64,000 nucleotides of DNA, taken from the NCBI GenBank assembly GCA_964622645.1, contig CAZUSV010000004.1, forward strand, positions 9,290-73,289. Direction: 5' to 3'. The notes beneath the pieces are model-generated. The model did not search any database. It had not been told where the DNA came from and was given only the letters and a program-made list of their open reading frames with translations. How positions within the stretch are numbered: the first letter of the stretch is position 1; every line of letters begins with the position of its first letter. Source of the DNA: an uncultured Anaerolineales bacterium. GTDB lineage: Bacteria; Chloroflexota; Anaerolineae; Anaerolineales; UBA11858. This document shows positions 49,642 to 56,095 of this stretch, piece by piece. The translations under genes were made by a program, and so were the position numbers.

Positions 49642-51228
49642 TTATCCGAAGGGATAGGGGTTGGGTAATTCAACTTCCAGCACGAAACCCTCACCAGAAG
49701 ATGATCTGATTTGCATACGACCGTCCAATAGGGCCACTCGCTCACTGATACCAACCAGACCAAAATGATGGTTTGCAGAGAGGTCTGCCAGATCAGGTAA
49801 TATTTCAATGCCATATCCATCATCCACAAAACGGATCAATAGGTGACCCTCGGGTGAATGCGTCAGTGTCAATTGCACCTCATTTGCATTGGCATGCTTG
49901 GCAACATTGCCAAGACCCTCTTGAATAATCCTAAATATTGAGAGTTCCATCAGTTCTGGCAGGCGTCCCAACGTTTGATCGATTTCTATTTTTGTCGTAA
50001 CTCCGCTTCGCTCCTCCCATTCTTGTACCAGAGAGGGAATTGCAGAAGAAAGTCCGTGGTTGTCGATTGTTGGAGGGCGCAGGTCACGGCATAATTGGCG
50101 CAAATCGCTTACAACCTGGCGAATTGCCTCACGGATTTCATGCAACTCGTGACGTTGTTCATCGGAGTTTTCATCACTCTCTACATCTTCCAGCCGGTAA
50201 TTTACTCCGAGCAAATCCTGTATCACTGAATCGTGTAACTCACGCGCCAGGGCTTTGCGTTCTTCTTCTCTATCGGTCATCAAGCGCCTCTGTGTTTCCT
50301 GCAGAGCTGCATTTAAGCGATCCATGGCTTTGACCTGCTTGCTTAACTTTTCGATTAGCTGTCGGTTAAGCAAGTCGCTGGCTTCTAGCGTCTCATGCAG
50401 TTGAGCCTGTTCCCGAAAGAGTTCTTCAGTGTGTTGTTGGGCTTTGTGGAAGCTTTCCAGTGCCCACATGACGGGTGTGACCTGTTCCTGGTTACTGGCA
50501 CCCACAATTAATTCTACAACTTCACGGGGAGTGAAATCAGACGTATATCGGTCTGCTACTAATCGACCTTCATATAACACCAGGATACGGTCGGTGATAT
50601 TGAACAGATGCTTCAGATTATCACTACAAACAACCACTCCCAAACCCTGTTGAGCTTGTTCGCGGACCCGCTCAAGTAAGATTTCCTGGCGATAGTAACT
50701 GAGATTGGATAAGATATCATCTAAGAGCAATAGACGAGGTGGTTGACAGAATGCTCGCATTAAGGCAATCAAATAACGTTGTTCGTTGGTTAAGTTTGCA
50801 ATCGGCTCATAAATTAAGTTTTCAGGTAAACCGAAGTTTGCCAGTAAATCTCTAGCCCTCTCATACATCAGTATCCAATTTTGTAGTCCGAGCAAAGGGA
50901 ATTTTATTATCTCGTGACCCAAGAAAATGTTTTGGATAACATTGAGCTGATCAATAACTTGAGATGGCTGGTAGACTAGTTCAACCCCCTCTTGGCGAGC
51001 ATGTGAGGAAGATACAAAATGTGTAGGTTGCTCTTTCAAAAAAAAGGTCCCCTGAGAAGGCTGAGTGGCACCCCCGATCAGGTGTAATAAAGTAGATTTT
51101 CCTGCGCCACGCCGACCGACCAAACCAAGAATTTCGCCTCGTTGCAATTCGAAGGTGATATTGTCCAGCACCTTTAGATTACCATAAGATTTGGTTAGTG
51201 ATTGAACACGTAACAAAGAATCAGACAT
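49642..51228 (-). CDS. Fusion protein: degenerate ABC nucleotide-binding domain + coiled coil + HisKA_3 + HATPase_c histidine kinase (soluble)
   Basis: The N-terminal ~245 aa are ABC-ATPase-like (GRRGAGKST, ELVYQ, NIFLGHE). The signature is LTNEQ, Walker B is LLLLDD-I, and there is no H-loop His. The C-terminal part has H-box ERKALARELHDSVIQ, N-box EGLGNVAKHA, DDGYGI and GLVGISER. No TM helix. Confidence 0.85.
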   Translation of the reverse strand: MSDSLLRVQSLTKSYGNLKVLDNITFELQRGEILGLVGRRGAGKSTLLHLIGGATQPSQGTFFLKEQPTHFVSSSHARQEGVELVYQPSQVIDQLNVIQNIFLGHEIIKFPLLGLQNWILMYERARDLLANFGLPENLIYEPIANLTNEQRYLIALMRAFCQPPRLLLLDDILSNLSYYRQEILLERVREQAQQGLGVVVCSDNLKHLFNITDRILVLYEGRLVADRYTSDFTPREVVELIVGASNQEQVTPVMWALESFHKAQQHTEELFREQAQLHETLEASDLLNRQLIEKLSKQVKAMDRLNAALQETQRRLMTDREEERKALARELHDSVIQDLLGVNYRLEDVESDENSDEQRHELHEIREAIRQVVSDLRQLCRDLRPPTIDNHGLSSAIPSLVQEWEERSGVTTKIEIDQTLGRLPELMELSIFRIIQEGLGNVAKHANANEVQLTLTHSPEGHLLIRFVDDGYGIEILPDLADLSANHHFGLVGISERVALLDGRMQIRSSSGEGFVLEVELPNPYPFG

Positions 51229-51308
51229 ACGATTTCATCACTTACTATCCTCACGAGATGATATTCTATTTTACCGCGCGATATTCCCAAAATGCATTCT
51301 ACTATTGC

Positions 51309-51334
51309 GGGCCTCTAGGAATTCCCGTGTTAAT
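51309..51334. repeat. Family A repeat, solo arm, between the permease and the NBD-kinase gene
   Basis: gggcctctaggaattcccgtgttaat. Overlaps the permease stop codon. Confidence 0.55.
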
Positions 51335-52514
51335 TTCCTGTTTTACGAGTAGTCACATCAAAGATAACCGCGGCTGCAAGTACAATCGCTCTTACAATGT
51401 ATTGATAGGATATGTCAATCCCCATTAAATTCATGCCACTCGTAAGCGATGTCATGACCAAGGCACCAATGAGCGAGCCAATCACAGTGCCTACACCACC
51501 CGCTGCAGATACACCACCGACAAAAGCTGCAGCGATAGCATCCAGTTCGAACAAGGTTCCTGCAGTGGTAGTGGCGGATTGTAGTCGGGCTGCAAATAGC
51601 ATTCCTGAAAGAGCGGCCAGCATTCCCATCGATCCAAATACAATATGCGTTATTCGCTTGACACTAATACCGCTTAATTCAGCTGCCTCAGGATTCCCAC
51701 CGACGGCGTAAATGTGTCTGCCCAGGACTGTCTTGGTGGTGATGAAATTATAGAGAATAGCCACAATTAATACAACCACTGCAGTCCATGAAAGGCCCTG
51801 GTATCCGGCTAATATCCAGGCAACCCAGCCAATTAGAGCTGAGATGAGCACCAGTCTGAGGACGAACATGCCGTTTGACATAACCTCAATTTGGTTTTTT
51901 TTCATTCTGCTACGGCTGATCAATTCACTCGATGCGAACAAAATAATGCCTAGCAATCCAAGGATCAAAGTGAATTTATGCAGATCAGGAAATATCTCAA
52001 TATTTGGAATATCTGAAATAAACCCATTTCCAATTGCATTGAATGCATCGTTTGGGATGACGATTGTGCCAGTAGCACGGGTGGAGAGTTGCAAGGCTCC
52101 CCTGTAACCTAACCAGCCTGCCAGGGTGGCGACGAAGGCTGGAATCCCTAGATTAGCCACTAAGAAGGATGTAAATAAACCGGCGATTATGCCCAAACCC
52201 AGAACAAGCGGTATTACCAGATAAACTGGCAGATTCCAGTTTACCATGGCGATCGCTGCCACAGCTCCAAGGAAACCGGCTAAAAAGCCAACTGATAAGT
52301 CAATATGCCGGATGATAATCACCAGGGTCATACCGACCGCCAAAACGGCAATATATCCGGTCTGGTTGACCAGATTAACCAGATTTCTTGATGAAAGGAA
52401 TAGTCCGTCCGTAGTAATAGTAAAGACTCCCATGATTACGAATAAGGCGATGAACATGCCGTAATCACGGATGTTTTCACGGAACAATTTGCGCATCTCA
52501 TTGAAAAGTGTCAT
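51330..52514 (-). CDS. CUT2 sugar ABC transporter permease (XylH-like, 394 aa)
   Basis: Polytopic BPD_transp_2-type permease. Its size and sequence are similar to xylose/ribose-type permeases. Confidence 0.9.
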   Translation of the reverse strand: MTLFNEMRKLFRENIRDYGMFIALFVIMGVFTITTDGLFLSSRNLVNLVNQTGYIAVLAVGMTLVIIIRHIDLSVGFLAGFLGAVAAIAMVNWNLPVYLVIPLVLGLGIIAGLFTSFLVANLGIPAFVATLAGWLGYRGALQLSTRATGTIVIPNDAFNAIGNGFISDIPNIEIFPDLHKFTLILGLLGIILFASSELISRSRMKKNQIEVMSNGMFVLRLVLISALIGWVAWILAGYQGLSWTAVVVLIVAILYNFITTKTVLGRHIYAVGGNPEAAELSGISVKRITHIVFGSMGMLAALSGMLFAARLQSATTTAGTLFELDAIAAAFVGGVSAAGGVGTVIGSLIGALVMTSLTSGMNLMGIDISYQYIVRAIVLAAAVIFDVTTRKTGN

Positions 52515-52531
52515 TTCGAGCCTCCTCGCGC

Positions 52532-53329
52532 CTATCCAGCAACCTGTACTTCTCTGAAGTCGTCTCTAGCGCCTATCATGTAGGCTACCACCCTTTCACG
52601 GAACTCGTTTATATCGCCTTCTACAGCGGTATCGCAGACTTTGCGTCCTTGGCGGAGTACGATCATTCGGTCACTGACTCGGTAGATATCTTCCAGGCGA
52701 TGACTTATGATGATGATTGATGCGCCTTGCGCTTTGAGCTCCTTTACTAATTCAAGTACCTGGTCAATCGCTGCTACGCTCAAAGCCGCTGTGGGTTCGT
52801 CCATGATGATCACTTTGGCGTTGAACGCTGTCGCGCGCGCGATGGCGATTGCCTGGCGCTGACCACCAGAGAGTCTTTCTACGATTTGGCGAACAGATTG
52901 GATGTTGATTCTAAGGCGATTTAGCAGACTTACAGTTTCCTGCTCCATGTGACGAAAATCCAAGACCCCAATTGGACCCAATTTCATTTGAACCACTTCT
53001 CGTCCCATGAAAACATTCGCCGCAACGTCTAGATTGTTGGCCAGGGCATAATCCTGATAAACCATCTCAATTCCCTGGCGACGCGCATCCATAGGATTGG
53101 TAATGTATGCCTTCTCCCCCTCCAGGAGAATATCTCCGTCGTCAGGGATATACGCTCCGCTGAGCACCTTCATGAGAGTGGATTTTCCAGCAGCGTTGTC
53201 TCCGACTAACCCCAACACTTCATTTTGTTGTAAAGCCAGGTCTACCCCACGTAATGCCTGGACAGCGCCAAAGTTCTTTTTGATGTTTCGCATTTCAACG
53301 ACTGGCGTGTTTTCTGGTGTAGATGGCAT
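52532..53329 (-). CDS. CUT2-type sugar ABC transporter ATP-binding protein, single NBD (265 aa)
   Basis: Intact motifs: [39 protein letters not shown]. Confidence 0.92.
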
Positions 53330-53483: not shown

Positions 53484-53585
53484 TTAGAAATTCATAATTC
53501 GTTAGTGCGAGAAATTTTCCTGAATTATAAAGGAATAGTGATGGATAATCCATCACTATTCCTTTTGATGAGTAAAACTCTTTAT

Positions 53586-55802
53586 TTATCCGTCCAATCC
53601 GGTGAACTCACTGGCATCCCAGTATCCAGAGTCAATGATTGCTTCCTGGACGTTGTCCTGGTCAACCGAGATCACTTCAGAAGGTTTGGCGGGGACATCG
53701 ATTACGCCATTGTTGTAGGTGTTGGTTTCGGGAGGTGCGCCGCCTTCGAGATAAGCAACGGCAGCGGCGATGGCATCACCAACCAGTGTGCGGACATCCT
53801 TCAGGACGGTCATGGACTGCTTGCCGTCAATGATGTACTGCACGGAAGCGATCTCAGCGTCCTGACCGGTGACCACGTAGCTGGCAACATCCGCATCGGC
53901 GCCAAAGGCATCGGCAATAGCGCGAGCGGTGCCGTCATTGGGCGCCAGGATGAACACATCGCCCTTGTCGTCAGCGCCGGCAGCAGTCAGATGAGATTCT
54001 GCCAGGGTCTTGGCGGTGTCGAAATCCCATTCGGTGGTGACCTGGCCGATGATCTGGCCCATCTCTTCACGGGTCAGTTCAGCCTTGTCCTGCAGGGTAA
54101 CCGCTTCGCTGGAGTTGACGACGTAGAAGGTGCCGTCAGCGATCTTGGGCTGCAGCACATTCCAGGCGCCTTCGAAGAACAGGAAAGCGTTGTTGTCAGA
54201 TGCCGCTCCGGCATACAGGTAGAGCGGGTTGCCAGACCCGGAGGCTTTGTCGACCAGGTATTGAGCCTGGGCAGCGCCAACAGCGATGCTATCGAAGGTG
54301 ACGTAGTAGTCCACTGCCTCGGTATCGCGGATCAGACGGTCGTAGGAGACCACTTTCACACCAGCCGAGCGGGCGGCTTCTGCAGCTGCGGCTGCGGCGG
54401 TACCGTCATGCGGGGTGATGATGATAACTTCGACGCCCTTGGTGATCAGGTTTTCGACGTTGGTCCTTTCTTTAGCGGAATCCCCTTCGCTGAAGAGGAT
54501 CTCGACCTCATAGCCAGCTTCGGCGAAAGCGTCTTTGAAGCGGGTCTCATCCTGGATCCAGCGAGGTTCTTCCCTGGTCGGTAAAACAATGCCAACTGTA
54601 CCAGACACTTCCGGAGCCATGCCCATCTCATCCAATCCGGTGAATTCACTGGCATCCCAGTATCCAGAGTCGATGATCGCTTCCTGGACGTTGTCCTGGT
54701 CAACCGAGATCACTTCAGAAGGTTTGGCGGGGACATCGATTACGCCATTGTTGTAGGTGTTGGTTTCGGGAGGTGCGCCGCCTTCGAGATAAGCAACGGC
54801 AGCGGCGATGGCATCACCAACCAGTGTGCGGACATCCTTCAGGACGGTCATGGACTGCTTGCCGTCAATGATGTACTGCACGGAAGCGATCTCAGCGTCC
54901 TGACCGGTGACCACGTAGCTGGCAACATCCGCATCGGCGCCAAAGGCATCGGCAATAGCGCGAGCGGTGCCGTCATTGGGCGCCAGGATGAACACATCGC
55001 CCTTGTCGTCAGCGCCGGCAGCAGTCAGATGAGATTCTGCCAGGGTCTTGGCGGTGTCGAAATCCCATTCGGTGGTGACCTGGCCGATGATCTGGCCCAT
55101 CTCTTCACGGGTCAGTTCAGCCTTGTCCTGCAGGGTAACCGCTTCGCTGGAGTTGACGACGTAGAAGGTGCCGTCAGCGATCTTGGGCTGCAGCACATTC
55201 CAGGCGCCTTCGAAGAACAGGAAAGCGTTGTTGTCAGATGCCGCTCCGGCATACAGGTAGAGCGGGTTGCCAGACCCGGAGGCTTTGTCGACCAGGTATT
55301 GAGCCTGGGCAGCGCCAACAGCGATGCTATCGAAGGTGACGTAGTAGTCCACTGCCTCGGTATCGCGGATCAGACGGTCGTAGGAGACCACTTTCACACC
55401 AGCCGAGCGGGCGGCTTCTGCAGCTGCGGCTGCGGCGGTACCGTCATGCGGGGTGATGATGATAACTTCGACGCCCTTGGTGATCAGGTTTTCGACATTT
55501 GTCTTTTCCTTGGCTGAGTCGCCCTCGCTGAAGAGGATCTCGACCTCATAGCCAGCTTCAGCGAAAGCGTCTTTGAAGCGGGTCTCATCCTGGATCCAGC
55601 GCGGTTCTTCCCTGGTCGGCAGAACAACACCAACGGTACCTGCCATCACAGCGGGTTCCTCTTCTGGAGCTGCTTCTTCTGGAGCTGCCTCTTCTAGGGC
55701 TGCCTCTTCTGGGGCTTGCGGCTGGCAAGCTGTGAGGACTAATCCGACCAGTACAACCAGCGAAACCAGCCATAAAACCGAACGTAAATTTTTCTTAGAC
55801 AT
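53586..55802 (-). CDS. Lipoprotein with two tandem XylF-like (D-xylose/ChvE-type) periplasmic sugar-binding domains
   Basis: Start at ATG 55802 after SD aaggaga. Signal peptide with lipobox LTAC and an (E/A/P)-rich linker. Two ~346-aa copies resemble XylF (REEPRWIQDE.., YDRLI, NNGVIDVP). Confidence 0.85.
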   Translation of the reverse strand: MSKKNLRSVLWLVSLVVLVGLVLTACQPQAPEEAALEEAAPEEAAPEEEPAVMAGTVGVVLPTREEPRWIQDETRFKDAFAEAGYEVEILFSEGDSAKEKTNVENLITKGVEVIIITPHDGTAAAAAAEAARSAGVKVVSYDRLIRDTEAVDYYVTFDSIAVGAAQAQYLVDKASGSGNPLYLYAGAASDNNAFLFFEGAWNVLQPKIADGTFYVVNSSEAVTLQDKAELTREEMGQIIGQVTTEWDFDTAKTLAESHLTAAGADDKGDVFILAPNDGTARAIADAFGADADVASYVVTGQDAEIASVQYIIDGKQSMTVLKDVRTLVGDAIAAAVAYLEGGAPPETNTYNNGVIDVPAKPSEVISVDQDNVQEAIIDSGYWDASEFTGLDEMGMAPEVSGTVGIVLPTREEPRWIQDETRFKDAFAEAGYEVEILFSEGDSAKERTNVENLITKGVEVIIITPHDGTAAAAAAEAARSAGVKVVSYDRLIRDTEAVDYYVTFDSIAVGAAQAQYLVDKASGSGNPLYLYAGAASDNNAFLFFEGAWNVLQPKIADGTFYVVNSSEAVTLQDKAELTREEMGQIIGQVTTEWDFDTAKTLAESHLTAAGADDKGDVFILAPNDGTARAIADAFGADADVASYVVTGQDAEIASVQYIIDGKQSMTVLKDVRTLVGDAIAAAVAYLEGGAPPETNTYNNGVIDVPAKPSEVISVDQDNVQEAIIDSGYWDASEFTGLDG
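53593..55638. repeat. In-frame tandem duplication, 2 x 1038 bp, within the binding-protein gene
   Basis: Offset is exactly 1038 bp. The central ~0.8 kb (53641-54458 vs 54679-55496) appears identical on spot checks. The flanks carry many mostly synonymous differences. Confidence 0.9.
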
Positions 55803-56095
55803 ATTCTTCTCCTTGAAATGCTTTATTTGAATCAAAATAGTACTGAATATTCAATTATCAGTTAAGTTATCTGGGGAACAGCACCTCCTCAATATTAGTT
55901 CTTAATGAATTCAAACTGTGAAGGGCAGGTGTGGTATCTGGTAGTAATTGTCAAAGCACACCAGATCCAATCAAACCGATTTTCATCGGTTTCTGAAACG
56001 GTAGGCAATTTTATCAAGTGTTGGGACCGGGCTCCCCCTCTTTTCCCCCCAATGATTTAGGGGATTTCCCCTAAAAATTATCCAAAGGTGAATTG

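Follow-up and report, generated by a model that had tools for sequence, protein, structure and literature searches.

The locus described here raises the question of how a single lipoprotein gene came to encode two complete sugar-binding units that are identical in the centre and diverged at the edges, and what two such units would be good for. The gene (53586-55802, minus strand) lies within a stretch of 64,000 nucleotides (nt), further called the window, of contig CAZUSV010000004.1 from an uncultured Anaerolineales bacterium (assembly GCA_964622645.1), and its product of 738 amino acids (aa) contained the Pfam domain Peripla_BP_4 twice. Taken as a whole, it is highly probable that the gene encodes a sugar receptor that arose by an old in-frame duplication, and that its two units have recombined with each other recurrently and serve as equivalent binding heads. 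The gene anatomy, the mosaic of the units, the conserved two-unit layout and the clustering of units by genome are direct observations, and from them the mechanism of recombination, the selective advantage and the specificity for sugars are inferred.

Identical core and diverged edges of the two units

The two copies were compared exactly (53593-54630 against 54631-55668) and a repeat search was also run, both giving a direct-repeat spacing of exactly 1038 nt, as had been stated in a preliminary description of this DNA. The copies differed at 39 positions, located at offsets 14, 41 and 47 and then at 866-1036, which left an uninterrupted identical block of 818 nt (offsets 48-865; 53641-54458 equal to 54679-55496) and confirmed the earlier impression that the central part is the same in both. 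Nineteen of the 39 mismatches were situated in non-homologous linker codons, the last 10 codons before each unit being mutually unrelated linkers. In the homologous part of 337 codons, 20 codons differed, 18 of them synonymously and 2 conservatively: in gene sense, the 5' edge (48 codons) contained 14 synonymous and both conservative (V/I, K/R) changes, the core (272 codons) none, and the 3' edge (17 codons) 4 synonymous ones. The segments are as follows.

54631..55668, minus strand: repeat copy 1, N-terminal binding unit (exact comparison; 267 bits alone with the ChvE model)
53593..54630, minus strand: repeat copy 2, C-terminal binding unit (exact comparison; 268 bits alone with the ChvE model)
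54679..55496, minus strand: identical core of copy 1, 818 nt, no mismatches (permutation test)
53641..54458, minus strand: identical core of copy 2, 818 nt, no mismatches (permutation test)
55497..55646, minus strand: diverged 5' edge of unit 1, with 14 synonymous and 2 non-synonymous differences against 54459-54608
54459..54608, minus strand: diverged 5' edge of unit 2, with 9 of 10 consecutive codons differing in the patch adjoining the core
53593..53640, minus strand: diverged 3' edge of unit 2 (counterpart in unit 1, 54631-54678), mismatches at offsets 14, 41 and 47

Overall, the units of the window gene had 98% nucleotide and 99.7% protein identity. When 20 differences were distributed randomly over 1011 nt (200,000 permutations), the longest identical run averaged 173 nt with a maximum of 497, and the analytic probability of an identical run of 818 nt was about 1e-13; the mosaic of identical and diverged segments exceeds chance. 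Nei-Gojobori estimates for the edges gave a synonymous divergence (dS) of 0.63 and a non-synonymous divergence (dN) of 0.013, while dS in the core was 0. The resulting edge dN/dS of 0.02 bears out the previous suggestion of strong purifying selection on both copies. Likewise, the two example strings quoted previously were located at 54456 and 55494, only two amino acid changes (GVVLP/GIVLP and EKTNV/ERTNV) were found in the 5' edge beside the 14 synonymous differences, and the few differing sites reported at the 3' ends corresponded to the 4 synonymous codon differences.

Within the patch adjoining the core (54459-54488 in unit 2, 55497-55526 in unit 1), 8 synonymous changes and the K/R replacement affected 9 of 10 codons. 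At the differing edge sites, a single-unit relative from the same genus (G013) matched unit 1 at 11 of 15 positions and unit 2 at 2 of 15, so the edge of unit 2 is the odd one. The non-synonymous divergence of the edges (0.01) was much lower than the 0.05-0.16 between species at a similar synonymous divergence, for which purifying selection is the only explanation offered. A selected recoding of the edges, whose synonymous divergence would protect the gene from repeat deletion, was rejected as the main reading because recombination would hardly decrease if the stretch of perfect homology shrank from 1038 to 818 nt.

Doubled binding proteins among relatives

Both one-unit and two-unit orthologues of the gene were found. 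In a sample of 301 genomes of the order, 46 had a close homologue, which was two-unit in 16 genomes from 8 families (including G027, whose second unit was seen separately) and single-unit in about 20. Among 40 relatives, the same two-unit frame was present in G020, G010, G033 and G027. A search of a protein collection with the full-length protein produced 1027 matches; by motif count, 110 of the best 120 were two-unit and 4 were three-unit proteins, many of these 120 being encoded on contigs of 0.3-1.76 Mb with source names pointing to Anaerolineales. Two-unit genes were located on contigs of 1.65 Mb, 1.0 Mb, 936 kb, 363 kb and 275 kb, and P0029 as well as P0009, both two-unit proteins, turned up in independent samples. 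The doubling is, therefore, real, old and widespread in Anaerolineales, and the preliminary description went wrong in calling a two-domain CUT2 receptor unusual: within this order it is common.

The number of units varied even at a short phylogenetic distance, with single-unit forms interleaved with two-unit forms inside the same genus. Four proteins (P0001, P0002, P0004 and P0005; 1006-1080 aa) had three units, and within each of P0001, P0002 and P0005 the two inter-unit linkers were the same or almost the same. Three units were also seen in G127 (L028), where the contig ends inside the third.

Concerted evolution and age of the duplication

Among the best database matches, the units of the same protein had a median identity of 98.2% (range 76-100%), and roughly 19% of positions differed when units of different proteins were compared. 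A DNA tree was built from 41 units of 23 genomes; in it, the two units were sisters in all 18 two-unit genes, mostly with a Shimodaira-Hasegawa-like approximate likelihood ratio (SH-aLRT) of at least 97, and the unit-position label changed 18 times, which is the maximum possible. Forcing the first units of the window gene (WIN, 53586-55802), G020, P0009 and P0029 into one clade cost 589 log-likelihood units and was rejected (approximately unbiased test, p = 2.4e-5). The sister-unit pattern alone could come from many independent duplications.

The inter-unit linkers carried an older signal. The linker of the window protein, TGLDEMGMAPEVSGTVG, was unrelated at the DNA level to its own N-terminal linker and had close matches in P0009 (TGLDTMGAAPEVSGTVG), P0029 (TGLETMGQAPEVTGRVG) and G020, with the common motif ...MG.APEV[ST]G.VG, despite a protein identity of only 79-88% to the window protein. 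A related form, ...GGAAPA[VI][TSK]G.VG, was found in G253, G085, G102 and G027. The N-terminal linkers, on the other hand, differed from each protein's inter-unit linker, and single-unit proteins and many first units started with (K/E)LAVG. Furthermore, in a denser protein sample very close relatives grouped by unit position (P0024/33, P0014-16, P0037/49/55/60/64 and P0042/51/70/78), and within each such group the first-unit and second-unit clades were then sisters.

The position of the differences along the units was also informative. The proportion of differing synonymous sites (pS) between the unit edges of the window gene was 0.46, as high as the 0.43-0.76 obtained between the window gene and other species, with none in the core. 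Across 116 proteins, the ratio of within- to between-protein differences stayed at 0.1-0.2 in the central part and reached 0.6 at one end and 0.48 at the other, and same-position comparisons were slightly closer than cross-position comparisons at the ends only. The mosaic of the window type was reproduced at the DNA level in G020, and also in G149 on a contig of 1.0 Mb, where 28 synonymous and 3 non-synonymous differences were all concentrated at the two ends around an identical core of about 200 codons. Two strains of P0009 differed mainly by clustered synonymous sites in unit 2, where the unit 2 of one strain was equal to its unit 1; such patches are as expected from recent conversion tracts and of an ongoing homogenization. 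In the same two strains (L019 versus L020), an ungapped comparison, with a possible indel shift, gave 56 differences in 1.7 kb downstream (ATPase and start of the permease) against 16 in 4 kb upstream.

The shared linker, the shallow grouping by position, the age of the edges and the edge profile together indicate an old duplication followed by recurrent intragenic gene conversion or unequal crossing-over, from which the edges escape. The earlier proposals of an old duplication and of a homogenized core are thereby sustained: the linker is common to several species and close relatives group by position, while the contrast between an edge dS of 0.63 and a core dS of 0, the sister units in 18 of 18 genes and the same mosaic on the megabase contig of G149 speak for homogenization. 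Unequal crossing-over would fit because of the identical linkers in three-unit proteins, the G127 gene and the occurrence of single-unit forms in the same genus. The binding unit was probably duplicated in tandem and in frame in an ancestor shared by several Anaerolineales species, after which the two 1-kb direct repeats would have recombined repeatedly, either through gene conversion or through unequal crossing-over with one-unit and three-unit forms as intermediates. The interior would thus be overwritten, while the repeat edges, rarely reached by conversion tracts, would retain the old and almost purely synonymous divergence.

Family assignment and predicted structure

The best NCBIfam model for the 738-aa protein was ChvE (NF040907, multiple monosaccharide ABC transporter substrate-binding protein), followed by XylF. 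The whole protein scored 522 bits against the ChvE equivalog cut-off of 460, although each unit alone reached only 267-268 bits: the whole protein clears the cut-off because the scores of the two units add up. With the XylF models TIGR02634 and NF007680 (cut-offs 389.55 and 504 bits), neither the whole protein (354 and 332 bits) nor a single unit (185 and 174 bits) reached the cut-offs. Judging from these scores, the units are best described as ChvE/XylF relatives and not as equivalogs. The name ChvE, if given by automatic annotation, would be an artefact of the doubling, and score thresholds can generally over-name doubled proteins. Peripla_BP_4 was recognized with 317.6 bits (cut-off 35.1) in two stretches.

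The closest solved structure was the single-unit PDB entry 4RXU (367 aa; E = 2e-162, end-to-end alignment, about 78% identity), a Chloroflexus aurantiacus protein solved with glucose. Further matches per unit were ChvE (3URM, E = 2e-54) and E. coli XylF (3M9W, E = 3e-41). An AlphaFold2 (AF2) run with an alignment of 75 sequences predicted alternating beta/alpha lobes with a local confidence score (pLDDT) of about 90 in both units and a global score (pTM) of 0.49. According to the family matches and the model, each unit appears to be a complete type-I periplasmic-binding-protein fold of the ChvE/XylF kind (CUT2, cluster B, Peripla_BP_4). The predicted disorder of tether and linker and the pTM value suggest that the two units would act as independent beads on a string. 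Binding of monosaccharides would be predicted from the identity to 4RXU and the invariant residues in both halves.

Anatomy of the gene and its neighbourhood

The open reading frame (ORF) containing the gene had 749 codons (53586-55835, minus strand) with a TTG start at 55835. An ATG at 55802, preceded by a Shine-Dalgarno sequence (AAGGAG) 7 nt upstream, is the likelier start and coincides with the end coordinate given in the preliminary description. The protein begins with MSKKNLRSVLWLVSLVVLVGLVLTAC and its lipobox LTAC meets the pattern [LVI][ASTVI][GAS]C; in the alignment of 75 relatives C26 was invariant and L23 and A25 were nearly so, and AF2 placed a helix at residues 3-23. On these features the product is to be classed as a typical bacterial lipoprotein. 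It would be exported and lipid-anchored, with the order signal peptide, flexible tether of about 30 aa, unit 1, linker of about 10 aa and unit 2. The inter-unit linker (54600..54632) contained neither a signal peptide nor a ribosome-binding site. A scan for promoters and terminators gave nothing above the shuffled expectation on the strand of the lipoprotein gene. Two antisense ORFs on the plus strand (53505-54584 and 55029-55517) were considered as by-products of the repeated coding sequence and not taken as genes.

53586..55802, minus strand: tandem sugar-binding lipoprotein gene, 738 aa (ORF; stop TAA at 53586-53588)
55725..55802, minus strand: signal peptide and lipobox, MSKKNLRSVLWLVSLVVLVGLVLTAC, with Cys26 as the predicted lipidated residue (read off the sequence)
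55641..55724, minus strand: Pro/Glu/Ala-rich flexible tether from the lipid anchor to unit 1 (AF2 pLDDT below 50 at residues 27-52)
54600..54632, minus strand: inter-unit linker DEMGMAPEVSG (AF2 pLDDT below 50 at residues 395-399)
52532..53329, minus strand: ABC ATPase with a single nucleotide-binding domain (NBD), 265 aa (Pfam ABC_tran)
51330..52514, minus strand: CUT2-type permease, 394 aa (Pfam BPD_transp_2)

The ATPase and permease genes are located directly downstream of the lipoprotein gene on the same strand, and the tandem lipoprotein would serve them as the sugar receptor. After the permease, the operon ends with a second NBD fused to a HisKA_3/HATPase_c histidine kinase (transporter region 49642-53329), and a response regulator of REC-HTH-REC type is transcribed divergently from the operon.

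Alternative explanations for origin and function

Several points weigh against an old duplication with recurrent recombination and equivalent heads. The source genome is a metagenome-assembled genome of 6.0 Mb in 365 contigs (88% complete, 3.6% estimated contamination, N50 25.7 kb), in which 81 contigs contain 10-N gaps, the window itself being free of N runs. Its assembly is, therefore, probably of the short-read, scaffolded type, and an assembler walking a collapsed repeat node twice would produce an identical core by construction, with the copy number not fixed. At the differing sites of the window gene no by-position signal was found in comparison with the relatives (cis/trans counts 0-1), since the third codon positions are saturated; given this saturation, the dating of the duplication has to rely on other clades and on the short linker motif. 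An edge-only dS comparison placed the edge of unit 2 marginally closer to unit 2 of P0009 (0.43) than to its unit 1 (0.64), with 42 codons being too few for this purpose. In G132 (L032, G132:C13), the units were 100% identical at the DNA level and the junction consisted of the protein's own tail (FKNLP) and its own N-linker suffix, which looks like a fresh independent duplication, so that the family mixes repeated duplication with conversion. Finally, the benefit of two identical units is hypothetical, and the roughly 20 of 46 homologue-bearing genomes with a single unit manage with one.

The assembly can be responsible to a different extent. That the genome has one unit only, with strain variants strung together into a tandem, is extremely improbable: the metagenomic origin and the estimated contamination would allow it, but the junction carries a unique in-frame linker (the junction 81-mer occurred once in the genome, the core 101-mer exactly twice), the frame is open through all 738 codons and the same architecture with a homologous linker is present in many independent assemblies. 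Because two-unit orthologues recur in such assemblies, including megabase contigs, comparison of the sequences leaves an assembly artefact excluded as the origin of the two-unit architecture; the previous argument to this effect from the flank pattern was right, with the comparative evidence being stronger than the flank pattern alone. It is unlikely that, with duplication and homogenization being real, the assembler has partly created the perfect 818-nt identity and the count of exactly two by collapsing isolated differences as bubbles and walking the loop twice, so that a few true differences or three units might exist. The N50 and the 10-N gaps are those of scaffolded, probably short-read assemblies; the retained differences all form chains starting from unique sequence with gaps of no more than 42 nt, as survives the simplification of a de Bruijn graph; long-contig relatives usually have scattered differences (nucleotide identity of 95.8% in G253, 98.1% in G224 and 96.6% in G149), and the G127 contig breaks off in a third unit. 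However, P0029 on a 936-kb contig had 0 differences in about 337 codons, G049 (275 kb) had 99.9% nucleotide identity, the median unit identity on contigs above 200 kb was the same 98.2% as overall, and G149 showed its long identical core between diverged edges on a megabase contig. These long-contig relatives show that complete or nearly complete identity of the units does occur in nature. A recent duplication private to this lineage, with the copies being alike simply because they are young, is very unlikely; it would agree with the 98% nucleotide identity and has a possible parallel in G132, but it cannot yield an edge dS of 0.63 beside a dS of 0 over 818 nt, nor does it account for an inter-unit linker that is unlike the own N-terminal linker yet matches those of P0009, P0029 and G020.

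As for the function, the preliminary description considered that the receptor might deliver two ligands or feed both the transporter and the signalling branch. In Agrobacterium, ChvE takes part in transport as well as in VirA signalling, the operon in the window ends in an NBD-histidine kinase fusion with a divergent response regulator, and the units have diverged to 76-88% identity in some relatives, which would permit specialization there. Nevertheless, a division of labour in which one unit serves transport and the other kinase signalling, or in which they bind different sugars, is highly improbable for the window protein. Since V/I and K/R are the only replacements between its units, and neither half lacks any residue that is invariant in the family, two ligand specificities are unlikely. 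The loci of P0029 and P0009 have adjoining MalT-like or ROK regulators and a plain single-NBD ATPase with permease without a kinase fusion, G010 has a standard two-NBD ATPase, and the single-unit G013 has the same divergent response regulator as the window; thus, the doubling does not track the kinase/signalling branch in relatives, and neither of the two suggestions was supported. Moreover, the only non-kinase Pfam domain of the kinase is the cytoplasmic ABC ATPase domain, and no extracytoplasmic sensor domain for a contact with the binding protein was detected in it by Pfam. Most likely, the tandem provides two equivalent sugar-binding heads per lipid anchor and thereby a higher local receptor concentration at the transporter.

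Other concatenated binding proteins

A second doubled binding lipoprotein was found in the same genome outside the window (G000:C39:3872-5701, minus strand, locus L003). It is an RbsB-like protein with a frame of 609 codons, unrelated to the ChvE-like unit (only 28% identity), and its two units are spaced by 283 codons; the first approximately 125 codons of its units were identical at the DNA level and the rest had diverged, mostly synonymously. Fusions of the ChvE-like unit to unrelated binding proteins also occurred in relatives: in one lipoprotein frame with a Bmp/PnrA-like protein in L033 (G178) and with a Peripla_BP_6/LivK-like protein in L034 (G257), and with an SBP_bac_1/CUT1-like protein in L007 (G016) and L009 (G011).

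Such concatenation on a single anchor seems to be habitual in the order. Since the ChvE-like unit occurs doubled, tripled and fused, and a second CUT2 protein in the genome is doubled, it can be speculated that concatenation on one anchor is a general design principle, favoured by selection and not described before, in Anaerolineales and perhaps also in other lineages without a diffusion-limiting periplasm, although we regard this as improbable. If true, the function would depend on two identical heads, which might for instance dock cooperatively or in alternation on the homodimeric permease, and the homogenization would be kept by selection instead of being a mere by-product of repeat recombination.

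Comparison with known systems

The single-unit proteins ChvE, XylF and 4RXU align with each of the units (4RXU end to end), have the same fold according to AF2 and have the same operon partners, a BPD_transp_2 permease and an ABC ATPase. In contrast, the window lipoprotein holds two complete units. The ATPase in the window also differs, having a single NBD of 265 aa where CUT2 ATPases, for example XylG and GguA, have two that are fused.

In the literature searched, no description of lipid-anchored tandem CUT2 binding proteins or of their homogenization was found, only work of the GlnPQ type. GlnPQ of Lactococcus lactis and other Gram-positive bacteria has tandem substrate-binding domains, which give more binding sites per transporter (PMC8025302). 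They form one chain with the transmembrane domain, are of the amino-acid-binding class and have different specificities and affinities (PMC8025302). In both systems, one polypeptide carries two complete binding domains with a short linker between them, held at the membrane beside the translocator. In the window, however, the binding protein is encoded by a separate gene, the 394-aa permease carries only BPD_transp_2, and the units belong to the Peripla_BP_4 sugar class and are 99.7% identical. By analogy, the best-supported reading is that equivalent heads would raise the receptor density in the way the GlnPQ tandem domains do. The GlnPQ concept, in which an importer has several binding sites, may thus be extended to lipid-anchored sugar receptors, which raises the question of the benefit of two identical heads.

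Concerted evolution by gene conversion is known from tufA/tufB of Salmonella and from rRNA operons, and identical large repeats are known from the alpha C/Rib surface proteins. The likeness lies in paralogues being closer within a genome than orthologues between genomes, in sharp-edged identical tracts and in a variable copy number. The difference is that each repeat in the window is an entire ligand-binding domain of 346 aa within the single reading frame of a transport receptor, instead of a separate gene or a short structural repeat, and that more than 100 proteins are available for measuring the escape of the edges. When a metagenome assembly contains a large, perfect repeat in frame, it is readily written off as an artefact or wrongly annotated; the present case indicates that whole ligand-binding domains can show long-lasting concerted evolution inside one gene, and the edge escape offers a natural system to estimate conversion tract lengths in uncultured bacteria. 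Tandem binding domains and conversion-driven concerted evolution are both already known, and the tandem lipoprotein gene in the window cleanly illustrates an evolutionary process that is known, without pointing to a new mechanism.

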